Source: Mustelus asterias
Taxonomy: Eukaryota
Assembly: GCF_964213995.1 (NCBI RefSeq)
Contig: NC_135821.1
Coordinates: forward strand, 4,774,001 to 4,838,000
Direction: 5' to 3'
DNA length: 64,000 bases
The notes beneath the pieces were generated by a model. It made no database searches, was not told the origin of the DNA, and saw nothing but the letters and a program-made list of their open reading frames with translations. Below, one piece after another: positions 822 to 63,642 of this stretch. A program made the position numbers and the translations under genes. Positions within the stretch are counted from its first letter, which is position 1. Every line of letters starts with the position of its first letter.

Positions 822-1040
822 CCTCTTTTTTTAGGTCAAACCAAACCAAGTAAACAAACTCAGATTAAATCAGGACAAAGTAAAAAGGGGCAGCTCCCCA
901 AAAAGGGGGGGGGGGGGGGGGGGGGGGGGCGGAACAGCCCGAACAGAAATCAAAGTACAAAGGAAACTTAAAAACATCAAATTAAAATGTGATTATTGGG
1001 GTCAATAATGCACCCCAACCCCTGCGGTGCCCAGCAGGCA
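822..1040 (-). mobile_element. Tx1-clade non-LTR retrotransposon, 3' end fragment, in intron 1 of ferritin A
   Basis: Homologous to the ORF2 end and 3' UTR of the long Tx1 copy at 45508-48016; absent from the paralogous intron of B, C and F (which read CAGCTGTTACAAGG); contains a long G run at about 904-929. Confidence 0.8.
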
Positions 1041-1638: not shown

Positions 1639-1724
1639 TATTTATACCACTGGGACATCCTACATTCAAACTGGGAATGACATCACCAATGATGATTGAC
1701 AACCCCTGACAGCCAATCAGGAAT
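1639..1724 (-). promoter_or_regulatory. Ferritin A core promoter: TATA box, CRE-like TGACATCA, CCAAT boxes
   Basis: TATAAATA at 1639-1646 on the minus strand; module shared with genes B, C, D, F, G, H. Confidence 0.8.
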
Positions 1725-2053
1725 TCTTTCGATACCAATCAAGTAGCTTTTTCGGGTACCAACGTAATAAACGAACTCAAATTAACTTAGGGACAAAGTA
1801 AAAGGGGCGGCTCCCCAAAAGGAAGGGGGGAACAGCCCGAACCAAAATCAAAGTCGAAAGGAAACTTAAAACGTCAAACCAAAAGGTGATTATCGGGGTC
1901 GATAATCAGCCCCTGCGGCGCCCAGCGGTCGCGGAAGGCGTCAACCGCGCCCGTGGACACCGCATGCTCCCTCTCCAGAGACACCTGGCCGCGAATGTAG
2001 CCGCGGTAGAGGGGCAGACAGTCGGGATGGACGGCCCCGTCGATCGCCCGCTA
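1725..2053 (-). mobile_element. 5'-truncated Tx1 retrotransposon inserted in the ferritin A CCAAT box
   Basis: Near-identical to about 47680-48000; flanked by a 16-bp direct repeat ACAGCCAATCAGGAAT (1709-1724 and 2054-2069). Confidence 0.9.
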
Positions 2054-5348: not shown

Positions 5349-7371
5349 TCAGTCCCTCTCCCCTAGGGTGAGCCTGTCAAACAGGTACTCTCCCATGCCA
5401 TTCTCAGGGGCTCCCAGTCTCTTCAGGTTGGTGATGTGATCTCCAAGCTTCTTGATCATCTTCACTTGTTCATCCAAGTAGTGAGTCTCCAGGAAGTCAC
5501 ACAGCTGGAAGGAGGAGGAAGGGAAAGTAGTTATATCCACTAACAGATACAAATCCAAGCTCCCCTGGGACTGGAGGATATCAAGTGATACATTTAAAGT
5601 TGGTGGAATTACAGTGTCATTAGAATGATGATTTAAGGACACCACAGCAGCTATTGTCAGAGATCTTTTGATTAGCTTCAGGGACAAGGCTGACCCATTC
5701 CCAAAAGGATTAGTAGCTTACATGAGGGTCGGTGTTCCCAGAGGAGAGTTTGTGCAGATCCAGCAGACTCTGGTTCACATTCTTCTCCAGCTGCAGAGCT
5801 CTCTGCATGGCCTCCAGACCATTGCTCCACTCATCCTGCTCTGGCTTCTGAAAGAGGGGAAGACAGACTGTTTGTTCACAATGGAATCAACAAAATACAA
5901 GGTGTCAAAAGGATACAAATTACTTTCATGGGATGGGTGTCACTGGCTAGGCCAGCATTTATATCTGGGTGGCAGTGAGAGCTACATCCTGTAGTCCATA
6001 TGGAGGGGCATTATCAATCATACAGAATTTGAATTAAGCAGCATTTCAAATGAAGTTAGCACAAGGGGAAGTCAAGACAAGGTCACTCATTCCATTAAAA
6101 TCCAACCTGGACATCCTCCAGGATGACTCTGCCTCCACGTTTATTCTGGAATTCCATCAGTTTCTCAGCATGTTCCCGTTCCTCATGTGACTGCTCCTTG
6201 AAGAACTCAGCAAAGTGACTCAGGGCAACATCATCCCGGTCGAAGTAACAGAACTGCAGGGAGAATTTAAAGCCAGTTTAAAATCTAACATCTCCCATTG
6301 TTATAGAATCCTACGGTACAGGAGGCCATTCAGCCCATTGAGTCTGCACCAACCACAATCCCACCCAGGTCCTATCCCCATGCATTACCCTACCTAGTTC
6401 CCCTGACACTAAGGGGCAATATATGACCAATCCACCTAACCCACACACCTTTGTTCTGAACTGTTCAAGAATTAATTCTACTGGCTAAATAGCAACATTG
6501 ATTTTGCTTTTAGCATTTGAAAATAGATAATCTTGTTTATGAAACAAGCAGAAAGGTTACACTCTGTCCAAGCATATGGAAACAGAGAATTAAACTGACA
6601 ATAATGGTACAAAGGACATTCAATAAGTCTTTGTCCTCCATCCAGAAAGTGTATAAACACCCAGATACACAAGGGTTTACTGATCCATTCCATTGAGTGA
6701 ATATCAGTCTACATCCTCTTCACAGCTTTGTGCTCATCAGTTCCAAACTCAGGCAGCAGCTGAACTAGTTTCATCCATTAAACCTCTCAAATGGAGAGCA
6801 GCTGTTACAAGGAGCAGCCCATTCACTCAACATCACCCTGGATTACACACTGGAGACACTCAGCCCTCAATGATTCTCTCACCCCCAGGGATGGAAGACA
6901 AGAGAAATAAGTCTTAGTCACAAGTAGGCTGACATTAACACTGCAGTGAAGTTACTGTGAAAATCCCCTAGTCGCCACACTCCAGCACCCATTCGGGTAC
7001 ACTGAGGGAGAATTTAGCATGGCCAATACACCTAACCAGCACATCTTTCAGACTGTAGGAGGAAACCAGAGAACCCAGAAGAAACCCATGCAGACACAGG
7101 GAGAACATGCAGACTCCACACAGACAGTGACCCAAGCCAGGAATCAAACCCAGGTCCCTGGCTCTGTGAGGCAGGAGTACTAACCACTGTGCCATTAATA
7201 TCATTTATAAAGTCACTTCATTCAACTGGAGATGATCCTACATTTCAGGTCAAGGAACACAAAGCTCACCATGGAGAGGTAAACATAGGAGGAATAGAGC
7301 TCCAGGTTGATCTGCTTGTTAATAGCATCCTCACAGTCCTTGTGGTAGTTCTGACACACTTGGGAAGCCAT
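5349..7371 (-). CDS. Ferritin M/heavy-like subunit, gene B (176 aa, intact)
   Basis: Exons 7371-7270, 6253-6107, 5847-5722, 5504-5349, all GT-AG and phase 0; ferroxidase ligands retained (NLEL, HEEREH, LEKN, DEQV); ends LTLGERD*; AATAAA at about 5253-5258. Confidence 0.95.
6915..7196 (-). mobile_element. V-SINE in intron 1 of ferritin B (same insertion as in A and F)
   Basis: Same sequence and flanks as 1120-1397 and 41281-41546. Confidence 0.8.
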
Positions 7372-7391: not shown

Positions 7392-7510
7392 AGAAAGTTC
7401 TAGAACTGCCCCTTTCTAACACAACTTGTATTTATACCACTGGGCCATCCTGCATTCAAACTGGGAATGACATCACCAATGATGATTGACAATCTTTGAC
7501 AACCAATCAA
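7392..7510 (-). promoter_or_regulatory. Ferritin B promoter/5' UTR: HSE-like triplet, TATA box, CCAAT
   Basis: AGAAAGTTCTAGAAC at 7392-7406; TATAAATA at 7429-7436 on the minus strand. Confidence 0.7.
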
Positions 7511-7868
7511 GTAGCTTTTTCGGCACCAATCAAGTAGCTTTTTCGGCACCAATCAAGTAAACGAACTCAAATTAACTTAGGGACAAAGTAAAAGGGGCGG
7601 CTCCCCAAAAGGAAGGGGGGAACAGCCCGAACCAAAATCAAAGTCGAAAGGAAACTTAAAACGTCAAACCAAAAGGTGATTATCGGGGTCGATAATACAC
7701 CCCAGCCCCTGCGGCGCCCAGCGGTCGCGGAAGGCGTCAACCGCGCCCGTGGACACCGCATGCTCCCTCTCCAGAGACACCTGGCCGCGAATGTAGCCGC
7801 GGTAGAGGGGCAGACAGTCGGGATGGACGGCCCCGTCGATCGCCCGCTGCCTGGACCAGGAGCAGGTT
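7502..7868 (-). mobile_element. 5'-truncated Tx1 retrotransposon inserted in the ferritin B CCAAT box
   Basis: Matches the 3' end of the 45508-48016 element; tail of 23-bp repeats ACCAATCAAGTAGCTTTTTCGGC; flanked by TTGACA(A/G)CCAATCA. Confidence 0.9.
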
Positions 7869-8009
7869 GACAGCCAATCAGGAATCTGCCATCAATCCAG
7901 GCACCAATTAACAAAGGGTGCAGGGGGAGGGGGTGAGATCCAGGGCCAATCAGAGCTTTGGAATCTAGGCTGGTTTGGAAGATGAGTCTCAATGATGATG
8001 TCTGAATGA

Positions 8010-9497: not shown

Positions 9498-11325
9498 ATA
9501 AAGCTATTGATTGATTCTTTCCACGGGGAATTGTTTGGATTCACTATGGTAACCTGGAGGGAGTCGGGTAGATGTTGGGTTTGAAAGGTTCATGGCGAGA
9601 AGCAGCGCACTTTGGGATTTGTGTATTTTTTCACAATAGCAAAGTTAAAAGCTTCCTGGAAACTACGAGAGCGGCGAAGATATCAAGATGCAATCACTGA
9701 CAGCAATTTCATTGCAGTTCACATGTACATTCCCAAAATCAACTCCTAATCATTGCAGTGTCAACATTTGAATCCATTCAAAGGGGTTGGGAGACAAATG
9801 GGGCATCAGCAGAATTTGATATGTATGATATGAATATACAAAGAATAGTGGGATGTGGACTAAGGGCAGGCAGAAGGGAATAGTTTAATTTGGCGTCATG
9901 TTCAGCAATACATTGTGGGTTGAAGAGCCTGTTCTTGTTCCGAAGACTTATGGAACAGTTTTTGGAATTTGGTTTTTAGGTTGCTGGAGGAGGATATGGG
10001 AAGGTCAGGCATACTAGGAAGTGAAATATTTATTTCCTTTGGTTTTTATTTCCTTTGTATATTTGATGAAATGTACAAAGTAGTATAATCTCATTCCACA
10101 CATTCCTTTCTGCTCAATAACTTATGCAAGTTCACATTGTCAATGTAGCTTATTCCATCCCGTCAATCAATGGTGAGTACAAGTGTAAGGTTTTCAGAAC
10201 CACATGAGATTCACTCCCGCAAAACAAGGTGAGTGACATTAATTTCAGACAGATTTCCCTATCACCCAATGCAGTTCCCTTTACTCCTGGGAATTCAATT
10301 TGAATAGCCATTTCCGCTCCTAAATCTTAATAGCCCTTATGAATAGTTAAGTGTCAGCTGCCAGTCACAGCAAGATTAAAAACAAAGGGATTGTTTAAAA
10401 AAAGCTTTGTTAAAATTGTTCTTCCCAGGACTAAGCATAGGCTCAGATGGGGTTGATTCCTCAACTGAAGTTGAATATCCTTCATATTTTAACAAAACAC
10501 GAAGATAGTGGGTGCATTAAAAAATTGCACTGGACAAGTCACTGAATGCTCTGGGAATCAGAAGTTCAAATTCCACCATGGAAACTGGTGGATTGCAAAT
10601 AATTAATCTGGAGTATGAAACTAGTCTCTAGAATGGAGACTGAAACTACAAGATGGCTCGTTAATGCTCTTTAGGGTAAAAGACACAGCAATATAGTTGA
10701 CTCTGAACTTCTTGAAGTCTAATCTGTTGAAGGACAAGTTAGGGAACAGCAATGCTGCCATCTCAATAAAAAGCTGCTGGAATGGATATTTGACTGGGAT
10801 AGATATCAGTCTAGTATTTGTGTCCCATATTTCTGACTAGGAGTGTTGCCAGCACAGTAGAGAATATTCCATAGAATCCCTATGGTGCAGAATGAGGCCA
10901 TTTGACCCATTGAGTCCACACCAGCCATAATCTCCACCAGGGCCCTATTCCTGTAATCCCACATTTACCCTGCTAATCCCCTGACACCAAGGGGCAATTT
11001 AGTACAGCCAATCCCTTAACTTGCACATCTTTGGACTGTGGGAGGAAACATGCAGACATAGGGAAGAATGTGCAAACTCCAGTGACCAGAATTTAACCTG
11101 GCCCCTGGCAGAGGCAGCAATGCTAATCACTGTGCCACCATTTATCATGGAGAACAAAGAAACAGACCATTCTTCCTAGAACAACATCACCAGTAACTGC
11201 TCTTGTAATATTTCTTGCTTCACTGAAAAGAAAACAAAATCCAGTCTCATGTCAAGTAGTTTTTAATTTACAGTTGTATTTACATCAAAACAGGGTCTCA
11301 TGCTGGATCCCAGTGCTCAGTTCAG

Positions 11326-15947
<4,622 letters not shown>

Positions 15948-16005: not shown

Positions 16006-16091
16006 TATTTATACCACTGGGACATCCTGCAGTCAAACTGGGAATGACATCACCAATGATGATTGACAATCCCTGACAGCCAATCAGGAAT
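16006..16091 (-). promoter_or_regulatory. Ferritin C core promoter (TATA, CRE-like, CCAAT)
   Basis: TATAAATA at 16006-16013 on the minus strand; shared promoter module. Confidence 0.8.
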
Positions 16092-16662
16092 TCCTTCGAC
16101 ACCAATCAAGTAGCTTTTTCGGCACCAATCAAGTAAACGAACTCAAATTAACTTGGGGACAAAGTAAAAGGGGCGGCTCCCCAAAAGGAAGGGGGGAACA
16201 GCCCGAACCAAAATCAAAGTCGAAAGGAAACTTAAAACGTCAAACCAAAAGGTGATTATCGGGGTCGATAATACACCCCAGCCCCTGCGGCGCCCAGCGG
16301 TCGCGGAAGGCGTCAACCGCGCCCGTGGACACCGCATGCTCCCTCTCCAGAGACACCTGGCCGCGAATGTAGCCGCGGTAGAGGGGCAGACAGTCGGGTC
16401 GGATGACCCCCTCGACCGCCCGCTGCCTGGACCCTGTAGGTGGCAAGCTTTGCCAGGCCCAGGAGCAGGTTCACAAGGAGCTCATCCTCCTTCCCCGCCC
16501 CCCCTCCGCACCGGTGCCTGTAGATCAGGAGCGTGGGGCTGAAGAGCAAACAAAACATCAATAAAAAGTTACTATGCTAATTAAAAAGGGAGTGCAGCCT
16601 TTGACATTCAACGTAGACATGATTCACAGGCTCTTCAAGATTACAAAAAGGGACCCAGAGTC
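16092..16662 (-). mobile_element. 5'-truncated, apparently chimeric Tx1 retrotransposon in the ferritin C CCAAT box
   Basis: Same 3' junction as in gene A (CAGCCAATCAGGAATTC.TTCGA.ACCAATCAAG); the distal part resembles the 58052-58722 subfamily (LAKLATYRVQ). Confidence 0.85.
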
Positions 16663-23417: not shown

Positions 23418-23553
23418 ACAGTAAGAAGTTTAACAACACCAGGTTAAAGTCCAACAGGTTTATTTGGTAGCAAAAGCCACACAAGCTTGTGTGGCTTTTG
23501 CTACCAAATAAACCTGTTGGACTTTAACCTGGTGTTGTTAAACTTCTTACTGT
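23418..23553. repeat. Perfect 136-bp palindrome made of two Penelope termini
   Basis: 68-bp arms with no spacer, centred on AAGCTT (23483-23488); arms match the Penelope end at about 35056-35126; direct repeat CACTCAATGGACA at 23408-23420 and 23592-23604. Confidence 0.9.
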
Positions 23554-28717: not shown

Positions 28718-28808
28718 TATTTATACCACTGGGCCATCCTGCATTCAAACTGGGAATGACATCACCAATGATGATTGACACTCTCTGACAGCCAATCAGG
28801 AATCTGCC
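28718..28808 (-). promoter_or_regulatory. Ferritin D core promoter (TATA, CRE-like, CCAAT)
   Basis: TATAAATA at 28718-28725 on the minus strand; shared promoter module. Confidence 0.8.
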
Positions 28809-28989
28809 TTTTTTTAACGTAGAACAGGAGGGTCCCTGATTGGGCCATCAAATAGGACTCAATCGAGAATTTCATTTGTTTATTACAAAAACAGTTACAA
28901 ATATTCAAAATACAAATATGAAAGATACATTACCAATGCCATCCATTTATCAATAATCTACAATTACTATCTTCTATTTAGGAATGGTT
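28809..28989 (-). mobile_element. Unidentified retroposed insert with A-tail next to the ferritin D CCAAT box
   Basis: Starts with a T run (A-tail on minus); flanked by a 14-bp near-perfect repeat ATCAGGAATC(T/A)GCC at 28795-28808 and 28990-29003. Confidence 0.65.
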
Positions 28990-29010
28990 ATCAGGAATCA
29001 GCCATCAATC

Positions 29011-31967: not shown

Positions 31968-33711
31968 TGATTATGCCAACGTGAGGGTAAAGTACATTAG
32001 AAAGGTACTTGCCCTACTAAAGCAGGATCTTGTTAATGACACCTGCAAGACAGTCTATACCCTAGGTGCCCACTGACTGCAGACGGCACCAGGTGTACTG
32101 ATGGATGCCTGCCACACACGCCCTCTGTAGAGGTCACCCAGGGATCCACAAGATTGTGAAAGAGAAGTAGGCAGTCAGAGTGACACCACTCCCCCAGCCC
32201 TCACCCCAACCCCATGAGCCTAAGCTGTCCTAGAATGAGAAATTGCTGATTCCGTCAGGACTGGCAGGTCCGTAGGAAGTTCCTTCGACTTTGACCGAAG
32301 AACATGATTGGTCATTTTTGCTTCCCATGTGCTGCAGTTTTGCACTTGCCTGCTCTAATCATCCAATCAGAATGTTCCCTGGTCCAAATGATCATATCCA
32401 CTGCATTCCATTCTTGATTGGTGCCCTCTAAGGAGCTTGTAGTTCTGATTGGGTACTGGGAGTGGTGTAGCATCAATTGGAATGTGAGTCTTGGTATTTA
32501 AGATGAGTTGGTCCCACTTGCATCAATGTCAGAGTCTAGTGAGTTAGAATGGCTTCCCAAGTGCAGTAGAACTACCACAAGGACTGTGAGGATGCTGTTA
32601 ACAAGCAGATCAACCTGGAGCTCTATTCCTCCTATGTTTACCTCTCCATGGTGAGCTTTGTTTTTTTTCAAGAAACTTAGTGTTTTTGAATAACCTGTTG
32701 GTCTGTATACAATGAATGCATTGGTTTTATAAAAGTTCTAATGTAGTGCAACTTATTTTATGGTCAGTAATAAACCTCTTTTGCAGTGATTATAACACCT
32801 GTATCATCTATAATAATCTTTAAGCTGTATGATTGTTTTCACCAGAGTCAGAACTATGACCCTGTTGACCTCTTGTTTCTAACATTGCCATTGAGTTAAA
32901 TATATTTGCACAATATTGTAATCATAGAATCCCTACTGTGCAGAAGGTGGCCATTTGGCCCATTTGAGTCTGCACTAACCACAGTCCCAGCCCTGTAACC
33001 CCATGTATCTACCCTGCTAGTCCCCCTGAAATTAAGGGGCAATTTAGCATAGCCAGTCCACGTAACCCGCATCTTTGGTCTGTGGGAGGAAACTCTCCCA
33101 GACATGGGGAGAACATACAAACTCCACAGTGGCCTGAACTGGGAATTTAACCCTGACTGAGGCAGCAGTGCTTGCCACTGTTGCCCTTGTAATTGGTAAC
33201 TGGTTTTACATGGCCAGCTTTCATTAAGCATCTGTAATGGGTTGATACAAAATTGATACAATGGTTGAAAGAGGACTGTCGATGCCAGGTATAAAAGAAA
33301 AAGTGTAAGCTAGAAGCAGGAGGAGGCCATTCGGCCCTTCAAGCCTGCTCCACCATTCATTTTGATCATGGCAGATCATTAAATTTAATATCCTAATCTT
33401 GACTAGCCCTGAGCTAAAGCTAATTGGGTTCTAGGAGATGGTGTCTCTGGTGTCCACTTTGCAGAAGGGCTTTGAGTATGATGGTGAGATATTCTCCTTG
33501 TGATACCAGATGTGAATTGCAGGCAGGTACTTGGGGCAAATAATCCCATTTTTAAAATGAGTGAGATAGGGGATTGTCAATAAATTTGTTCAAGGGCCTT
33601 GGAATATAAATTCCCTTTTTTTTAAAAAATTGAACAAGTGGACGCTTGCCTGATAGGAAAGAATCAGTGGGAGCTGCTTGAAGTAATGTAGGTCGTGGGG
33701 CTTGACTAGTT

Positions 33712-35053: not shown

Positions 35054-35990
35054 ACACAGTAAGAAGTTTAACAACACCAGGTTAAAGTCCAACAGGTTTA
35101 TTTGGTAGCAAAAGCCACACAAGCTTTCGAAGCTCTAAGCCCCTTCTTCAGGTGAGTGGGAATTCTGTTCACAAACAGAGCTTATAAAGACACAGACTCA
35201 ATTTACATGAATAATGGTTGGAATGCGAATACTTACAACTAATCCAGTCTTTAAGAAACAAAACAATGGGAGTGGAGAGCATCAAGACAGGCTAAAAAGA
35301 TGTGTATTGTCTCCAGACAAGACAGCCAGTGAAACTCTGTGGGAGTTACAAATAGTGTGCCATGAACCCAATATCCCGGTTGAGGCTGTCCTCGTGTGTG
35401 TGGTACTTGGCTATCAGTTTCTGCTCAGCGACTCTGTGCCGTCGTGTGTCGCGAAGGCCGCCTTGGAGAACGCTTACCCGAATATCAGAGGCCAAATGCC
35501 TGTGACCGCTGAAGTGCTCCCTAACAGGAAGAGAACAGTCCTGCCTGGTGATTGTCGAGTGGTGTTCATTCATCCATTGTTGCAGCGTCTGCATAGTTTC
35601 CCCAATGTACCATGCCTCGGACATCCTTTCTTGCAGTGTATCAGGTAGACAACGTTGGCCGAGTTGCAAGAGTATGTACTGTGTACCTGGTGGATGGTGT
35701 TCTCACGTGAGATGGTGGCATCTGTGTCGATCTGGCACGTCTTGCAGAGGTTGCTGTGGCAGGGTTGTGTGGTGTCATGGTCACTGTTCTCCTGAAGGCT
35801 GGGTAGTTTGCTGCGGACAATGGTCTGTTTGAGGTTGTGCGGTTGTTTGAAGGCAAGAAGTGGGGGTGTGGGGATGGCCTTGGCGAGATGTTCGTCTTCA
35901 ATGACATGTTGAAGGCTCCGGAGGAGATGCCGTAGCTTCTCTGCTCCGGGGAAGTACTGGACAACGAAGGGTACTCTGTCCACCATGTTC
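35054..35990 (-). mobile_element. Penelope-like retroelement, 3' part with GIY-YIG endonuclease
   Basis: ORFs 35570-36103 and 35346-35669: RVPFVVQYFPG...PLLAFKQP.NLK..IVRSKL...CKTC...CNSANVVYLIHC...WYIGET...L..RMNEH-like; one frameshift. Confidence 0.9.
35118..35154 (-). ncRNA. Minimal type I hammerhead ribozyme motif in the Penelope terminus
   Basis: Minus strand CAC-CTGAAGA-AGGGGCTTAGAGCTTC-GAAA-GCTT-GTG: CUGANGA and GAAA cores, helix I CAC/GTG, palindromic helix III. Confidence 0.7.
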
Positions 35991-39386: not shown

Positions 39387-39711
39387 GCTGGAAATGCAAA
39401 TCTAGCTGGAACAATCCAGGGTGTGCAATCAGGGTGAGGAATTCAGTTGCATCCTGCACTGGGTGTGATGGAATTAGTCTCCAGAGAGACCATGTTCATG
39501 CCCAAGGGGAACCATCACGGCATCAAATCCAGGATGGAACAACGGAATGATTTTGCTTTGAGATTAGATATCCAGAAGGTAGATTTGGAGATTGATGGCA
39601 CCACATTTTAAATGCTAGTCAGCTCCTAAAATGTTCAAGTTTGGTGTGGGTTTGGAATGTCGATGGATTTCATTGCTCCATATTTCAGAAAAGGAAACGC
39701 AATTATCAATC

Positions 39712-40160
39712 TTTTGACCGACCAAATAAACAAAATCAAATTAACTCAGGGACAAATTAAAAGGGGCAGCTTCCGAAAGGAGGGAATCCACCCGAAACAA
39801 AAGACAAAGTGGAAAGGAAACTTAAAACATCAAATTAAAATGCGATTAAAGTGGTCAATAATGCACCCCAGCTCCTGCGGTGCCCAGCGGGCACGGAAGG
39901 TGTTGACTGTGCCCTCGGACACCGCATGCTCCCTCTCCAGGGACACCCAGCCGCAAATGTAGTCGTGGTAGAGGTTCAGATAGTTGGGTTGGACTACACC
40001 CTCGGTCGCCCGCTGCCTGGACCTGTTTATGGTGAGTTTGGCCAGACGCAGGAGCAGGTTCACGAGGAGGTCTTCTGTCTTCCACCCCCGCAGCCCCTGT
40101 CCGCACTGGTGTCCATAGATCAGGAGCGTGGGACAAACAAAATATCAACAAAAGGTGAAA
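39712..40160 (-). mobile_element. Tx1 3' fragment (diverged subfamily) upstream of ferritin F
   Basis: ORF 39830-40063 NLLL.LAKLTINRSRQRA...VSLEREHAVS.G.V..FR.RWAPQ.LGCIID. Confidence 0.85.
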
Positions 40161-40871
40161 GACAATTATCGGCTGCTTTGGTCTGCTAATCTCAGACATG
40201 GATGAGCTGCAAGTATCCCCTACACAAAGGTGACTCCACGGTTTCCTCCAGCTCTCTGAAGCGGTTACGACCGTTTCTTGGGAATCCAGTTGCTGCCTTT
40301 GCGTTTGTGTTTAAAGGGATTGATGGGAGCACAGATTTAATACCAGGCAACACATCACATCACCAAAGCTAGGATTGAAAAGCTGAATGACCTTTGCACT
40401 GAGATCAGGTGTCGAAATATCGCTGGAAATCAGAACTGCCTCAAAGGGACGAGTCAGATTGTTGGAGAGCGTTTCAATCTGATTCCAATATTCTGAGGCT
40501 CATTGAAGGGACTTGTTTCCCTGAGGAACATACATATTAGGGGCAGGGTTAGGCCATTCAGCCCATCGGGCATGCTTGCCCATTTGATAAGATCATGGCT
40601 GATCTGGTTGCAGCCTCAGCTTCACTTTCCTCGGAGGAAAATTCCCTCAAGACGACGGGATAGTTTTGAATATTGTATCAGCCTCGCTGTCGCTGGCCAA
40701 TAACAAACCTGTCCAGATTATAACACCCACTTCAGCCAAAGGAACAAGTTATCGTCCAATTAAAATGAGAGGGTTAAACAATGAGACATTTTCACGCGGG
40801 AAGATGGTCGAGGACCCAAAAGCAGTGACATCATCGCGGTGAATCTCCCAAACCTGCCTGGTTTCCAAAGC

Positions 40872-41035
40872 TCTGATTGGCTCTGGCTCCCACCCCCTCC
40901 CCCCCTCCCCCCCACACCCTGTGATAATTGGAGGCTGGATTGATGGCAGATTCCTGATTGGCTGTCAGGGATTGTCAATCATCATTGGTGATGTCATTCC
41001 CAGTTTGGATGCAGGATGTCCCAGTGGTATAAATA
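40872..41035 (+). promoter_or_regulatory. Ferritin F promoter (uninterrupted, empty site): three ATTGG boxes, C-rich tract, CRE-like, TATA
   Basis: CTGATTGGCT twice, CATTGGTGATGTCA, TATAAATA at 41028-41035. Confidence 0.8.
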
Positions 41036-41095
41036 CAAGAGCTTGTGTTAGAAAGGGGCAGTTCTAAAACTTTCTAGGTGGCAGTAATAGTGAAG

Positions 41096-43915: not shown

Positions 43916-46597
43916 ACTGATTGTGGGGGATGAGCTTTGTGTTCAAGTTTGTATAATTGAGATCTCTGGACCTGTGGTTTTAGAGCGATTGAGCCAGAGG
44001 TGCATTATGGGAATGAACAAACTAAATAAACATTTCATAATGGAGTGAAGCTTGGTTTTAATTATTTGCAGTCACCAATGGACCAGCTACGTTGACAGTC
44101 TAACTCCAAGATACCCTTTTTTTTTTGGAAGGCACCAGATAAATGCTTAATCGTTTGCATCATTTGAACACCAGTGCTAGATTCTCTCCTTGGGAGGAAT
44201 TGTCAGATCTGAGCCTTGCTGGCTGAATCCAGATTTGTTGATGTCCATTGTGTCTCTGCCTTTTGCACCAATGGCAGCTCAAATCATTCAGACCAGTAGC
44301 TGCTGTCAAATGAGTTGTTTTAAATCTTTGTCTGGGTGGATAGTTTCCACAGAATTATTAGTGAAATGCTTTGGAACTGAACCTGCCCACTTGTTGCCCT
44401 GCTAAGCCTTTTCAGTATAGTACTAGATAACAGCAATGGGGTCTGGGAGGTCTCTGCCTTCCTCATACTGAAGGGAAGTACAACTGGGCTTTGGTCAATA
44501 TTGCCTGAAATGTTAGACTTGCCTCAAGGGAGGGCAATATGGGGATTCCTGGAGTAAAAGTCTTCAAACTGTAGTTGATTGAATAGAGTCAATAAATATC
44601 ACAAACCTGTGACTTAAACTCCACACCATCATTTAATCTCATTGTGCATTCATACCAAATAAGAATCATCAATTGCTTTCTCCCAAGCCTAAAAATGACA
44701 GCATTCATTTTCAACTCAGTTGAGAATGTCAATAAGGGCAATGACATCAGATGTGGAGGATTATTTTTAACCAGTGATTTATGATTAGGAATGCGCTGTC
44801 TGAAAGGATGGTGGAAATACATTCAATAATAAATTGACTGACGTGGGAAATGGACACAGTGGTTATCACTGCTGCCTCACAACACCAAGGTCCCAGGTTC
44901 AATTCCAGCCTTGGGTTACTGTCTGTGGGGAATTTGCATGTTCTCGTGTTTGCGTGGGTTTCCTCCCACAGTCCAAAGATGTGTGGATTGGGCATGCTAA
45001 ATTAATCCTAGTGTCAGGGGATGAGCAGGGTAAATGGATGGGGTTATGGGAATAGGGCTGGGGTGGGATTGTGGTCGGTACAGACCTGATGGGCTGAATG
45101 GCCTCCTTCTGTACTGTAGGGATTATATGGATATAAATGTGTTGCTATGATCCAATCAGCTTTTCTTGTCACACGGGGAGGCTGAATCAAGGGGAATGAA
45201 TGACCTCATATGGTCTTCACTTGAAATTGCCAAGTTTTGGGTTTGACCTATCGATATAATAGAGCATCGACCATCTTGTCCTACATTTTAGGGCAGGTTA
45301 TCACTCGTTCAACCACTGCCCCTATCGCCAAAGGATCTACTTTAATGTCTGCAATGAGGAAATATAGGTGTCCAAAGGACAGGCTCTTGATGATCCATGC
45401 TTCAGATAAAATCTTTCCTCGACTCTCATAACAGACTTGAGATTTGGAGAAGGGGAAATATTGGACCCACAGCCCATAAATTTGCTTGGGGGGAGTTTAC
45501 CTCATTGAGGCCTGTCTGCTTACGCCGACGACGTGCTCCTCATGTTCACGGACCCGGCTGACCTGCGGAGGATGCGAGAATGCCAGGCGGTGTACTCCGC
45601 CGCGTCCTCCGCCAGGATCAACTGGGCCAAGTGCTCCGGACTCCTGGTCGGTCCGTGGGAGACGGACCCCCTTCCGGAGGAGCTCAGGCCTTTCACCTGG
45701 AGCAGGACCAACCTCCTCTACCTGGGGGTCCATCTCTGCCCAGCCGAGGAATCCTGGCCGGCGAACTGGCGGGAGTTGGAGCCCAAAGTCTCCGCCCGCC
45801 TGGGTCGCTGGACAGGACTGCTCCGAGTGCTGTCCTACAGGGCGCGCGTTCTCGTCATAAACCAGCTGGTCGCCTCCATGCTGTGGTACCGGCTGGTCAC
45901 TTTGGCCCCTCCCCCTGGCTTTGTCACCGATATGCAGAAAGCCCTCGTGCGGTTTTTCTGGGACAACCGACTGCACTGGGTCGCTGCCGAGGTGCTGCAT
46001 CTCCCGATTGAGGAGGGCGGACAAGGTCTGGTGTGCCTCCGCACGCAGGTGGCGACCTTCCGCCTCCAGACACTGCAGCGATACCTTTACGTCGAGCCTC
46101 CTCCACGATGGCGTGCGATGGCGACGTATTTTTTCCGCCAGTTGCATGGCCTCAATTACGACGTGCAGCTCCTGCACATCAACCTGGGGCGTATTCCGAC
46201 CTCCCTGCGGGAGTTGCCCGTCTTTTACCAGGACCTCCTCACGGTCTGGAACACTGTCGCCTCGCGACGCAGCTCTCCCCCGTCAGGAGTAGCGGCTCTC
46301 GTGCGAGAGCCGCTGCTCAGGAATCCGCACCTCCAGCCTTACGACTTCAGGTGGCTGGCGGAGAGGAGGGCCGTGGACGCCGGGGTGACCAGGATCGGGG
46401 ACGTGCTGGATGGCGGAGGAGCGGGCTGGATGAGCCCCGACGTGCTGGCTGAGCGCGCAGGGGTGGCCGTCTGGCGCGCGGCCAAAGCCATCCAAGACCT
46501 TAGGACAGTCGTGCTCGGCCCCGAGTGCACACGCGGTCTGGAGGCGGCACAGGCGTGCGGTGGGATCCCGCCCGAGCGTTCCCCTGCTCGGACGGAA

Positions 46598-47114
46598 TTA
46601 GTTTAACAACACCAGGTTAAAGTCCAACAGGTTTATTTGGTAGCAAAAGCCACACAAGCTTTCGGAGCTCTTAGCCCCTTCTTCAGGTGAGTGGGAATTC
46701 TGTTCACAAACAGAGCTTATAAAGACACAGACTCAAATTACATGAATAATGGTTGGAATGCGAATACTTACAACTAATCAAGTCTTTAAGAAACGAAACA
46801 ATGTGAGTGGAGAGAGCATCAAGACAGGCCAAAAAGATGTGTATTGTCTCCAGACAAGACAGCCAGTGAAACTCTGCAGGTCCACGCAACTGTGGGAGTT
46901 ACAAATAGTGTGACATGAACCCAATATCCCGGTTGAGGCTGTCCTCGTGTGTGCGGAGCTTGGCAATCAGTTTCTGCTCAGCGACTCTGCGTTGTTGTGT
47001 GTCGCGAAGGCCGCCTTGGAGAACGCTTACCCGAATATCAGAGGCCGAATGCCCGTGACCGCTGAAGTGCTTCCCAACAGGAAGAGAACAGTCTTGCCTG
47101 GTGATTGTCGAGGC
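46598..47114 (-). mobile_element. Penelope 3' fragment nested inside the Tx1 ORF2
   Basis: Near-identical to about 35065-35560; 7-bp direct repeat GACGGAA (46591-46597, 47115-47121). Confidence 0.9.
46653..46689 (-). ncRNA. Minimal type I hammerhead ribozyme motif in the Penelope terminus
   Basis: Minus strand CAC-CTGAAGA-AGGGGCTAAGAGCTCC-GAAA-GCTT-GTG; helix II GGGGC/GCTCC. Confidence 0.7.
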
Positions 47115-48609
47115 GACGGAAGTCCACATTGGCCCGAAGCCTAGACCTCCCCCCCCCAGGTCAGGTGCCCCACTGCGTGTGCCGCCTCGCGGAAATGCCC
47201 TCCATGCCCTTTTCCACCGCGCGGAGGCGTTTCCTGTACGGGCTGCTGCTGCACACCTTTCACTACCGCGTCCTCGCCCGTCGCCCGGATACACCATGGC
47301 GGGCCTTGTTGCCGCTGGGCGGCGGAGGTCCCCAGTGGAGGTCCCTCTACGGAGGGATCTCCCCCAATTATCTCGGGGACCTGGGGTGGAGGGTGCTGCA
47401 CGCAGCAGTGCCGTACAACCGTAGGTTTTTCCGGTACACGGGCTCCCGAGACTGCCCTTTCTGTGGCCTTGTGGAGTCCGTGGACCATGTCTACGTTCTG
47501 TGTTTTAGGCTGCACACCCTTTTTGGTTTCCTCAAACACCTTTTACTGATGTTTTGTTTGCACTTCAGTCCCACGCTCCTGATCTACGGGCACCTGGTGC
47601 GGAGAGGGGCGGGTCGGGATGCCGACCTCCTCGTGAACCTGCTCCTGGGCCTGGCGAGACGCGCCATCAATAGGTCCAGGCAGCGGGCGATCGACGGGGC
47701 CGTCCATCCCGACTGTCTGCCCCTCTGCCGCGGCTACATTCGCGGCCAGGTGTCTCTGGAGAGGGAGCATGCGGTGTCCACGGGCGCGGTTGACGCCTTC
47801 CGCGACCGCTGGGCGCCGCAGGGGCTGGGGTGTATTATCGACCCCGATAATCACCTTTTGGTTTGACGTTTTAAGTTTCCTTTCGACTTTGATTTTGGTT
47901 CGGGCTGTTCCCCCCTTCCTTTTGGGGAGCTGCCCCTTTTACTTTGTCCCTAAGTTCATTTGAGTTTGTTTACTTGATTGGTGTCGAAAGAAATACTTGA
48001 TTGGTGTGAAAAGAAATACCTCATTGGAACATTAGTGCTCAGTTCCACTGATTCACTTTCATTTCTCCCCCAACTTGTTCAGGTTTTTTTTATTCATTCA
48101 TGGGACATGGGCGTCGCTGGCTACGCCAGCATTTATTGCCCATCCCTAGTTCCCCTTGAGAAGGTGGTGGTGAGCTGCCTTCTTGAATCGCTGCACTCCA
48201 TGTGCTGTGAGTTGACCCACAATGCCATTAGGGAGGGAATTCCAGGATTTTGACCCAGCGACTGCGAAGGAACGGTCGATATATTTCCAACTCAGGATGA
48301 TGAGTGGCTTGGAGATTTGGTTTGTAGATTCCCTGCGGATTATCTAGTGCAGGTTTGGTGCCTTCAACTGCTGTGGTCAGTGTCACAGATAGTTCTGGAT
48401 GTGACAAAAGATGCATCAATTCTCCAAGAGATGGGGCAACATCGACACAGTTGTGTTCAACACCATCCACACGGCTCAATTTCCATTTGCAAACTCATTA
48501 AACTGATATTATTGAGGCTAGAATTTGGAGAATAGATGCCATCCGCTTGAGGAAAGTCAAAGAAAGCAACGTTAATTGTAGCAACAACAAGGTTCCATTA
48601 AAAAATAGG

Positions 48610-52864: not shown

Positions 52865-53012
52865 TTGATTGGCTCTGGGTAACACACCCCACTCCCTCTT
52901 TCATTGGTGCCTGGGATTCACAACAGAGTCCTGATTGGTTGTCAGGGATTGTCAATCATCATTGGTGATGTCATTCCCAGTTTGAATGCAGGATGTCCCA
53001 GTGGTATAAATA
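52865..53012 (+). promoter_or_regulatory. Ferritin G promoter (uninterrupted)
   Basis: Multiple ATTGG boxes, TGATGTCA, TATAAATA at 53005-53012. Confidence 0.8.
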
Positions 53013-53031: not shown

Positions 53032-55647
<2,616 letters not shown>

Positions 55648-56857
55648 CTGGATGGAGAATGAAGTTTGATCCAATTTTGACTATTGTGTACTCACAATCC
55701 TGTTCTGAGCTGTTGCTGTATTTGGAAATTAAAATATTTTTGGTCTGATTTTTCTTGTCCTTTACTGGCATTCAAAGTGAAAAGATTTCCAACTTGATTC
55801 ACTCTCCTCTTGTGGTTTTCAGCATGCAAAGGATTTCTGTAACTAATCTGCTCACTCTCTCTGCAAAGGAGAGTCCTACTATTGTGGAATAATCAGGAAG
55901 GGAGCATGCAGTTGGTCACAAGTATTCATCTTCACTGCTATTCCCCAGAATACAGGACTTTAACCAGGTTTGCTTTGTTAACTCCATTTGTCAATCTAGC
56001 TGACTAGAAAGCAACCATCAGGGTTCAAAAGCAAGAGGTGCAGGTTGGGTGGAATGGCCATGTTAAATATGTGGGGATTATGGGGAGAGGGCCTTGAGAG
56101 ACTGTCAGCATTGGTGCAAACACAGTGGCTGGAATGCCCTTGTACTGAATTGTGGAGTCTGGGTTATACAGGGTGGGTGTCTCCGTGCTGACCTGGGACA
56201 GAAACAATGAATCCTGCGTTGCTTTACAGATGGCGTGGTGGAACATTCCAGAATACTGCAGTGTGTAGAGCAACAGTGGAGCAGGATGTAGTCACTTCTA
56301 GCTGTGGACTGTGAAAAACCACTGGCTTCCTCAGAAGCAGTCACTCTATCTCTCCTCAAAGCAGAAGGAAAATCCACTTTTAAAACAGTTCCAGAGTCCT
56401 GCATTGATCCTTTAAGAAACAATGACTGTTCTTAGTCCTTGAAGATGAATCATTTTCTGTGATCAAGATTTTCCCGCCAGCCATTTGTACCCAGTCTGGC
56501 TGACATGTGACTCCAGACCCCACAGCAGTGTGACTGACTCTAAACAACCCTCGGAAATGGCCCAGCGAGCCATGGCCAACAAATACTGGCCTTGCGAGAA
56601 ACAGACACATCCCACCAAAGAATGCGTTTAAATAAAAGATAGACTCAAAGTTTTCCAATAAAGGAGAAAAATGCTGGTGTTTCCAGCTCTGAGATTTGTG
56701 GATTAAACTCCACATCACACTTCACACTGACTGAGCAATAGCGTTCTGTCTGATACTCATCACAAATCCATTTTACATTTCCCCCAACTTGTCAGTTGGT
56801 TTGTAGATTCCCTGTGGTTTTGTCTGGTGCTGGTCAGCCTCTTCCAATCTACCTCCA

Positions 56858-57206
56858 AGGGGAGGTGATGGCCTAGTGGTATTATCGCTAGACTATTAAT
56901 CCAGAAACTCCGCTAATGTTCTGGGGACCCGGGTTCGAATCCCACCACAACAGATGGTGGAATTTGAATTCAATAAAAAAAATCTGGAATTAAGAATCTA
57001 CTGATGACCATGAAACCATTGTCAATTGTCAGAAAAACCCATCTGTTTCACTAATGTCCCATTAGGGAAGGAAATCTGCTGTCCTTACCTGGTCTGGCCT
57101 ACATGTGATTCCAGAGACACAGCAACATGGTTGACTCTCAACTAGGAAGGGCAATAAATGCTGGCCAGCCAGCGACACCCATGTGCCACAAATGAATGAA
57201 AAAAAC
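56858..57206 (+). mobile_element. SacSINE1-like DeuSINE, near full length
   Basis: GGGGAGGTGATGGCCTAGTGG (A box), GGTTCGAATCCC (B box), Deu-type core, AATGAATGAAAAAAA tail. Confidence 0.8.
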
Positions 57207-58047: not shown

Positions 58048-58051
58048 AATC

Positions 58052-58722
58052 AATCTTTTTGACAAACCAAATAAACTAACTCAAACGAACTCAGGATAAA
58101 TTAAAAGGGGCAGCTCCCAAAAAGGAGGGGAACCGCCCAAAACAAAAGACAAAGTGGAAAGGAAACTTAAATCATCAAATCAAAATGTGATTAAAGGGGT
58201 CAATAATGCGCCCCAGCCCCTGCGCTGCCCAGCGGGCATGGAAGGTGTTGACAGTGCCCCCGGGCACCGCATGCTCCCTCTCCAGTCATACCCAGCCGTG
58301 AATATAGCCAGGGTAGATGGGCAGACAGTCGGGTTGGACGTCCACCTCGGTCACTCGCTGCCTGGACCCTGTAGGTGGCAAGCTTTACCAGATCCAGGAG
58401 CAGGTTCACGAGGAGGTCCTCCTCCTTCCCCACTCCCCTCCGCACCGGGTGTCCGTAGATCAGGAGCGTGGGGCTGAAGAGCAAACAAAACATCAACAGA
58501 AGGTTTGTGAGGAAACTAAAAAGGGAGTGCAGCCTATCACATTGAACGTAGACATGGTCCACGGACTCCACAAGGTTGCAAAAAGGGAAGGTTGCTTGGG
58601 AGTCTGGGAACCAATTTAACCTTCTGTTGTGCAGGACTGCTGTATGCACCACCCTCCACCACAGGTCCCCAAGATAGTGGGGGAGGATCCCTCCGCAGAG
58701 GGACCAGAACGATACCAGCACT
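58052..58722 (-). mobile_element. Tx1 3' fragment immediately upstream of the ferritin H promoter
   Basis: ORF 58200-58760 YLGDLWWRVVH...FPFCNLVESVDHVYVQC.RL...FSPTLLIYGH. Confidence 0.87.
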
Positions 58723-58799: not shown

Positions 58800-58942
58800 T
58801 CTGATTGGCTCTGGGTATCACACCCCACCCCCTCTCATTGATTCATTGGTGCCTGGATTCCTGATTGGCTGTCAGGGGCTGTCAATCATCATTGGTGATG
58901 TCATTCCCAGTTTGAATGCAGGATGTCCCAGTGGTATAAATA
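58800..58942 (+). promoter_or_regulatory. Ferritin H promoter
   Basis: ATTGG boxes, TGATGTCA, TATAAATA at 58935-58942. Confidence 0.8.
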
Positions 58943-58955
58943 CAAGAGCTTGTGA

Positions 58956-62023
<3,068 letters not shown>

Positions 62024-63642
62024 GTCATGAGAATGAAGTTTGATCCAGCTCTAACAGTCCTGTTCTGAGCTGTTGCTGTATTTGGAAATAAAAATATTTA
62101 TTGTTGGACTGATTTTTCTTGTCCTTTACTGTAATTCAGTAGCTGGGTTCAAATATTTCTCTCTTGATTCACTCACCTCTTGTCTTGCAAAGGAAAATGC
62201 AACGATCAGGGCGTGTGTAGTATTCATCTTCACTGCTGTTACCCAGAATACAAGACTTTAACCAGGTTTGCTTTGTTCACTCAGTTTGTCAATCTGGCTG
62301 GATAGAAAGGCAAAAGTCAGGATTCAACAGCAAGATGTGCAGGTTGGAGGGGATTGGACATGGTAAATGTGTGGGGTTATGGGGCAATGCCTTGAGTGGC
62401 ATTGGTGCATGCAAACAGTGGGCTGAATGGTCTCCTTCTACATTGAAGGATTCAATGGAGTCTGGGTTATACAGGGTGGCTCTGTCTGTGCTGACCTGTG
62501 AAAGAATCAATGAATCCTGCATTGTTCCTCCAGAAACATTGCTGAAGCATTCTAGAATGTTCCACTTCAGTGTGTAGAGCAACTTTGGAGCAGGATGAAG
62601 TCACTTCCAGCTGTGGCAGACTGCTGGCTTCCTTGGAAGCAGTCACTCCATCTCTCCTCAAAGCAGAAGGAAAATCCAGTTCTAGAGTCCTGCATTGATC
62701 CTTTAAGAAACAATGTCTTTAAAAACACCACTTCTTCCAGTTCTGGAAGATAAATCATTTTGATTAATCTTCCTGACAGCCATTTGTACCCAGTCCGGCT
62801 GATGTGATACCCGACCCACAGCGGTGTGGCTGACTCTTAACCACCCCCAGAAATGGCCCAGTGAGCCATGACCAACAAATACTGGCCTTGCAAGAAACAA
62901 CCGCATCCCACCAAGCAGTACATTTTTAGAAAGAGTGGACACAAAGTTTTCTGATAAAGGGGGAAAAGCGCTGGTGTTTCCAGTTCTGAAATGTGGGGAT
63001 AAAACTCCACATCACACTTCACACTGACTGAGCAATAGCGTTCTGTCTGATACTCATCTCAAATCCATTTTACATTTCCCCCAACTTGTCAGTTGGTTTG
63101 TAGATTCCCTGGCTTTGTCTGGTGCTGGTCAGCTTCTTCCAATCTACCTCCAAGGGGAGGTGATGGCCGAGTGGTATTATCCCTAGATCATTAATCCAGA
63201 AACTCAGCTAATGTTCTGGGGACCTGGGTTTGAATCCCGCCACGCCCATGTCCCACGAATGAATGAAAAAAACATAATATTGTGGTCAATGCTGGGACTG
63301 TAAAGAAATTACTAAAAAGTAGTGGACTTAAAAAGTCTTTGGAACTCTCTTCCTAAAAAGGTGGTGGAAGCAGAATCGTTGAATATTCTTAAGGTAGTGC
63401 TGGGTAGATTCTTTGTAAGCGAGGGTGTGATAGGTTATCAGGGGTTGGCGGGAAGCAAAGTGAGGATGGGTACAAGACAAGTTGGTGTTCTTTGGATCAG
63501 CTGATCAAATGAGTGAAAGAAGAACTATTTTCTCATCTCAAACCCATTTTACATTCCCCCAACTTGTCAGTTGGTTTGTAGATTCCCTGTGGCTTTGTCT
63601 GCTGCTGGTCAGCCTCTTCCAATCTACCTCCAAGTCGAGGCA

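Follow-up and report, generated by a model that had tools for sequence, protein, structure and literature searches.

A tandem-repeat tail resembling its target closes young Tx1-like retrotransposons at the CCAAT box of shark ferritin promoters

A short tandem repeat fused to a ferritin promoter of Mustelus asterias raises the question of what a retrotransposon tail that resembles its own target does at insertion, and what it leaves behind in the promoter. The window analysed here is a stretch of 64,000 nucleotides (NC_135821.1, positions 4,774,001 to 4,838,000). In our preferred reading, which we hold with a probability of roughly 0.55, the repeat belongs to a recently active Tx1-like APE retrotransposon. 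The endonuclease would pick the site, pairing of the tail would set the start of reverse transcription, and promoter boxes would be replaced.

The window contains eight tandem H/M-type ferritin genes (A, B, C, F, K, G, L and H). Ferritin A (ATG 1580, minus strand) has exon 1 alone inside the window. Ferritin B (5349-7371, minus strand, ATG 7371, TATA 7436) has four exons and an intact 176-aa ORF 3' of the filled promoter, and ferritin C (11320-15947, minus strand, ATG 15947) has four exons and an ORF open to 174 aa. Ferritin F is on the minus strand (ATG 28657), and K, G, L and H are on the plus strand (ATG 32549, 41096, 53071 and 59001, respectively). Frames of 173-176 aa are open in six of the seven genes that have four exons in the window. 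In the pseudogene, ferritin K, codon 7 is a stop and exon 4 contains a frameshift. The promoter of K (32300-32550, plus strand) is diverged and has its own CCAAT series at a similar spacing of 31 and 28 bp. Ferritins L and H form a duplicated block (54364-56948 and 60768-63243), 81-88% identical across about 2.5 kb. The ferritin 5'UTRs (e.g., 1581-1640 and 41035-41095) are of two types, which assort independently of the upstream and intron types, as in mosaic paralogs. An Rfam scan of the whole window gave no matches. No IRE-like loop was found by pattern in seven similar ferritin promoter/5'UTR segments, and K gave one pattern match.

Of the four young copies of the element, three (A, B and C) lie in ferritin promoters and the fourth (D, 45512-48016) does not. 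The repeat at 7502-7559 contains 2.5 copies of a 23-bp unit with 100% matches; of 26 TRF rows for the window, it scores highest (116). It is on the minus strand, about 105 nt past the ORF2 stop of a truncated element. The repeat forms the 3' terminus of a very young Tx1-like non-LTR retrotransposon, which is truncated at its 5' end and has no poly(A). The first-pass annotation had claimed a tandem-repeat tail in place of poly(A), and the data bear this out, as 2-2.5 units close all four young copies. Its description of two units and a partial third in copy B (minus strand) needs one refinement. The two identical 23-bp units are as described, and the 12-bp partial unit (7502-7513) is the last one in element orientation and is fused to the proximal CCAAT box of the ferritin gene. 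The related units that it had placed elsewhere are present in the other three copies. Copy A (1724-1769, minus strand) has a degenerate first unit of 24 bp without CCAAT and a 22-bp unit, with the host box in register at 1713-1723. Copy C (16091-16135, minus strand) has a 23-bp and a 22-bp unit, with the host box in register at 16080-16090. Copy D (47971-48016, plus strand) has two 23-bp units. The 13-mer core of the unit occurs nine times at no more than two mismatches, compared with 2.7 expected; eight of these are tail units and one is in promoter K. A runs at the 3' ends reach at most 4-5 nt in D, B, I and E and 7 nt in J. No AATAAA or ATTAAA signal was present at the five element 3' ends checked (B, D, E, I and J, of which B and D are young).

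The body of copy B (7560-7866, minus strand) is 5'-truncated and comprises the C-terminal end of ORF2 and the 3'UTR. The body of copy A (1770-2052, minus strand) is identical to it at 273 of 273 positions. Copy D (45512-47866, plus strand) begins with a 5'-truncated ORF2 from the YADD region, split by an unrelated 513-bp repeat at 46600-47112. This repeat is 92% identical to 35065-35559, and its first 62 bp recur at 23427-23488 and, in inverted form, at 23483-23544. The body common to the four young copies shows 0-4 differences in about 240 nt, and CpG o/e is 1.0 in B and 0.86 in D, compared with 0.3 for the window. The near-identical, CpG-rich bodies indicate that the young copies are recent. 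At the 5' end of copy B (7855-7870, minus strand), 13 nt come from a part of the element that lies about 25 nt farther upstream, the mark of an internal deletion or template jump. The body of copy C (16136-16652, minus strand) is a chimera of a young 3' part, identical to D at 258 of 264 positions, and a 5' part (16400-16655, minus strand) of a different subfamily, which matches D at 194 of 255 positions (76%) and I at 209 of 256 (82%). This 5' part may be an older insertion at the same promoter that was overwritten by the young element, or the product of a template switch.

J, E and I are more distant relatives, 70-80% identical, and each ends in a single degenerate unit without CCAAT. Copy J (844-1040, minus strand) is in intron 1 of ferritin A, with one unit and an A7 run and without a CCAAT target. 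No TSD was seen for it, and its insertion site is empty in B, C and G. Copy J is a distinct, fairly recent family without CCAAT targeting. Copies E (39705-40165, minus strand) and I (58049-58705, minus strand) are older. By eye, copy E has a possible 8-bp TSD (39700-40165), and E and I have the same few bases after the A tract, resembling the start of a second unit. A predicted 3'UTR hairpin (47902-47935, plus strand, in D) appears to be retained 5' of the tail in young and older relatives, with z-scores of -2.9 (D), -3.9 (I) and -1.8 (E). It folds in all four copies tested, with 39 of 40 cells paired and one compensatory change; covariation was not significant and did not exceed shuffles (124/500). 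The hairpin loop of copy J contains a 25-nt G/C run.

The tail unit begins with TACTTGATTGG (47971-47981). The ferritin target site, TTCCTGATTGG (40951-40961), and the host site of copy D, TACCTCATTGG (48017-48027), each match the unit start at 9 of 11 positions. In A, C and D, the host 11-mer that follows the tail matches the unit start at 9/11 in a register of 22-23 bp. The spacing of successive unit starts and then the host site was 22 in A, 23/23 in B, 23/22 in C and 23/23 in D. In copy B, the last unit and the host box are fused within the core that they share, and the first bases of the tail are kept; this junction could result from later slippage or recombination. The first-pass annotation had proposed checking whether junctions fall in register with TGATTGG, and they do so in 4/4 young copies in the window, a sample with two independent target types. 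The match to the ferritin site prompted the finding and is post hoc, so the non-ferritin copy D serves as the independent test. Its target is host DNA, because it is duplicated in a 10-bp TSD (45498-45507 and 48017-48026, plus strand, 10/10 identical) that was equalled by 17 of 20,000 random pairs. The probability of its register match by chance is about 6e-4, allowing one base of slack on either side. Sites at 9/11 alone are expected 26.6 times per 128,000 positions (30 Markov simulations). Similarity to the target over the whole unit (22-23 nt) looked extended by eye, but the ferritin and D sites were only in the top 0.3-4% of positions for unit a; the claim of a match is therefore limited to the first 11-15 nt.

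All four young copies are inserted at one type of 11-mer. The TSD is 16 bp in A (one copy at about 2054-2069), and copy B has a duplicate of the target box upstream (7867-7885, minus strand) and the fused junction on the right. No TSD was found for copy C. In the ferritin genes, it is the proximal CCAAT box that received insertions A, B and C; this box is empty in ferritins G (40951-40961), L (52928-52938) and H (58858-58868), all on the plus strand. Promoter F had been put forward as an empty control, but it carries another insertion at the same box. This is a 181-bp, AT-rich (30% GC) insert (28809-28989, minus strand) that ends in A7 and has no tail unit. It is flanked by a 14-bp TSD (13/14; 28795-28808 and 28990-29003), equalled by 13 of 5,000 random controls, and its nick is about 5 nt upstream. 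It also contains a target-like CCAAT-core 11-mer in the opposite orientation (28833-28843) and an AATAAA 76 nt before its end. Counting this insert, the proximal box was entered in four of the eight ferritin promoters.

Pairing between tail and primer at the initiation of reverse transcription is likely. This is suggested by the in-register junctions of the four copies, with D at an independent site, and by an anatomy that parallels UnaL2 and ZfL2-2. In UnaL2, a stem-loop and a terminal repeat are reported to start reverse transcription with slippage (PMC1636434), and microhomology is reported at about 80% of the 3' junctions of ZfL2-2 (PMC2666801). Approximate tail-primer duplexes at the ferritin box were among the best 0.03-0.3% of 20,000 random sites, with 2 nt predicted to be unpaired at the primer end, and the duplex of copy D is modest (best 0.9-1.5%; RNA-RNA parameters). 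Guiding of site choice by the tail is doubtful, because the tail-less insert in F used the same box and the best match to the tail, a CCAAT box of pseudogene K (32411-32425, plus strand), is unoccupied. Of the earlier idea that complementarity primes or guides the insertion, the first half is thus a reasonable one and the second doubtful.

The base at position 4 also bears on this. Both used target types have C at this position, whereas the tail has T. A young copy was present at four of eight tail-like sites with C and at none of the 15 without it (Fisher p 0.008; p 0.02 with ferritin sites collapsed), a post hoc association. These 23 sites were obtained from 33 at 9/11 or better by removing the eight tail units and the unit of J and merging the two TSD copies of A; copy B entered through its left TSD copy. 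If RNA-DNA complementarity picked the site, the element would be reprogrammable through its tail. The tail is two mismatches from each target type, both of which match it in register, and the ferritin boxes rank in the top 0.05% for duplexes of unit b. However, the K box, which pairs best with unit a (-24.5 kcal/mol, compared with -14.1 and -12.3 kcal/mol; RNA-RNA parameters), is empty, the site of copy D is a weak partner (best 0.9-1.5%), and similarity past the first 11-15 nt is unremarkable. With the insert in F and the unused sites without C, this makes tail-guided choice very unlikely in our view. The targets of Tx1/APE elements are reported to be set mainly by the endonuclease, over about 10 bp for Tx1L (PMC4494074, PMC1919474).

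Register by itself does not require pairing, since a tail captured from an old target would also leave junctions in register. The endonuclease alone could set the junction, with units that are captured target pieces plus a short A tract from an earlier read-through or self-insertion; pairing would then be idle and the register a by-product. Each unit is indeed a target-like 11-15-mer followed by an A-rich end. Its first 15 nt match the K box at 14 positions, the best non-element match in the window, and have nine bases in common with the native middle boxes, and a length of 15 nt is within the observed TSD range (10-16). The insertion in F was made at the box without pairing, and tandem SINEU-3 insertions are reported to sandwich a TSD (PMC4494074). 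However, a homologous single unit without CCAAT is already present in J, E and I, so the tail unit descends at least partly from an old 3'UTR. The tail also has T where both used targets have C, and the junction of copy B has moved into the paired core. We consider it unlikely that the tail is such a passive remnant, and favor pairing that sets the start.

The three ferritin copies could also go back to one insertion, which gene conversion or unequal crossing-over carried to the paralogs before it was remodelled; there would then be no real promoter targeting. A and B are identical at 273/273 positions, similar in length and nicked at the same position; at most one of about 240 nt separates the bodies of A, B and C, their young parts start within about 90 nt, and the ferritin paralogs are mosaics. 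On the other side, no two of A, B and C share a 5' junction or a tail, and the insertions of D and F arose independently, that of F at the same box. Divergence of the host flanks is 1-7% in intron 1 and 16-28% in the distal upstream region, compared with 0-0.4% for the bodies. With flanks so much more diverged than bodies, simple co-duplication of filled promoters with their genes was rejected. A single origin seems quite improbable. From the different 5' junctions and tails, we favor separate insertions of A, B and C, and the similar lengths leave room for gene conversion.

The consequence for the promoters differs from what had been expected. The first-pass annotation had inferred that each insertion leaves more CCAAT boxes near TATA. 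Within 200 bp upstream of TATA, the filled promoters A, B and C have 3, 4 and 4 CCAAT pentamers in the same orientation, and the totals for G, L and H are 4, 6 and 5, with four each in promoter orientation; F has 3. The full NF-Y consensus is RRCCAATSR. It is matched once per filled promoter and twice each in G, L and H. The empty promoters have a strong box at about -131 to -152, a second box at -90 to -102, another strong one at -71 and a fourth at -44. The insertion leaves -71, -44 and TATA in place, although two flank positions of the -71 box are altered in copy B. The upstream boxes, including the strong distal one, are shifted about 345-370 bp away in A and B and deleted in C. The tail boxes land at -93/-94 and -116/-117. 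All five purely tail-derived boxes (A, B and C) have a pyrimidine in place of the purine at -2 and fit 3/6 flank positions. The supposed extra boxes are not extra: CCAAT boxes are replaced by weaker ones and none is added.

The tail boxes are spaced 22-23 bp apart, and the native -71/-44 pair 27 bp. Steric exclusion of two NF-Y complexes, which a minimum spacing of 24 bp would imply, was rejected in view of the published minimum of 19 bp (PMC4889920). In that human report, bound pairs peak at 24-28 and 35-37 bp, with none under 19 bp (PMC4889920); the tail spacing is above this minimum and off both peaks. In sequence, the tail box is similar to the native middle box, and its distance from TATA is almost the same. 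One could imagine the tail as a mimic of a transcription-factor site, which pairs with CCAAT boxes to direct or prime insertion into promoters and supplies a near copy of the displaced box at -93/-94, compared with -90 to -102 for the native one. Such an element would be self-repairing and promoter-homing, and its target could be changed via the RNA tail. We give little credence to this idea. The intact frames of B and C are compatible with tolerated insertion, although the insertions are too young to mean much.

For the preferred reading, we believe that the following steps would account for the data. The endonuclease would nick a short preferred site, approximately T-N-C-C-T-N-A-T-T-G-G, which the ferritin proximal CCAAT box matches, and promoter accessibility probably adds a bias to site choice. 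The first 11 nt or so of the last RNA tail unit would then pair with the nicked strand and fix the start of reverse transcription, so that the host site appears as the next unit, in the register observed. Slippage between units would vary their number and type. The outcome is visible in the promoters: the proximal box, -44 and TATA are kept, and the tail supplies one or two weaker CCAAT boxes near the displaced native -90/-102 box.

The identity of the element was determined from copy D, whose ORF2 is encoded from the YADD motif onward. Two fragments of D are 79% and 74% identical to an ENA protein, which has sub-cutoff RVT_1 and zf-RVT matches; Pfam gave no match for the two fragments alone, and ESM Atlas returned only generic RT-like names, at a low recognition value. 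Copy D is 42% identical to an alligator protein annotated as TX1 149 kDa. In a tree of 27 rows, with 26 of 27 candidate relatives kept and with neither a curated Repbase reference nor an L1 row among them, D and turtle elements form sister branches (100/99) within a larger group (98/96) that also includes the "TX1" proteins of alligator, Betta and Takifugu. Assignment to the Tx1 clade is supported by these sequences, and the label rests on automatic names. No endonuclease was found in the window by tblastn with full-length relatives, and all copies are 5'-truncated. An Exo_endo_phos match was present in five of the six longer relatives scanned, four of them above the cut-off.

If one family repeatedly inserts into a single CCAAT box in the promoter of a multicopy protein gene, the known safe havens would extend to Pol II regulatory DNA. 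An encoded 22-23 nt tail with an 11-nt target match would be a natural system for separating RNA-primer pairing from the endonuclease in TPRT, a question that bears on retrotransposon-based gene insertion. Filled and empty ferritin paralogs provide a built-in expression test.

Several known systems share parts of this picture. With other members of the Tx1 clade (Tx1L, Keno, Mutsu, Dewa, Kibi, Koshi and Tx1-Mar), the element has in common a TX1-annotated ORF2, 5' truncation, TSDs and a preference for repeated targets. That clade is reported to target RNA genes, microsatellites, satellites and transposons (PMC4494074, PMC3706591, PMC3812793), whereas this element enters a promoter CCAAT box of multicopy protein-coding genes, and its specificity is loose, as D lies elsewhere. 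The predicted 3'UTR stem-loop, the terminal repeat of variable number, the 3' microhomology and the proposed slippage resemble those reported for eel UnaL2 and zebrafish ZfL2-2 of the L2 clade (PMC1636434, PMC2666801). However, the unit is 22-23 nt here and is reported as 5 nt there, the site match is about 11 nt, and the element protein groups with TX1-annotated ORF2, not with the L2 clade. The tail would work like the UnaL2 type, but the element is not a member of that type. As in human L1, where 5 A are reported to be used for pairing (PMC10830416), an RNA tail would pair with a nicked primer; unlike L1, there is no poly(A), and the ORF2 is distantly related (ENA protein versus human L1 ORF2p, E only about 1e-6). 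In R2 and R1, a target-like 3' end of read-through RNA can also pair with the primer, and targeting is reported to be stronger when element and target are transcribed together (PMC4494074, PMC11194090), although pairing is reported as not needed for R2Bm (PMC11194090). In contrast to R2 and R1, the target mimic here is encoded inside the element and repeated, and so it travels to new sites. In the literature compared, with Repbase and Dfam outside the comparison, no description of this Tx1 element or target was found. Each mechanism has a precedent, and the combination of a long target-mimicking repeat tail with a promoter-box target appears to be new. Overall, we regard the element as a Tx1 that is probably targeted by its endonuclease, whose repeat tail is unusually long and whose target is the promoter of a protein gene.
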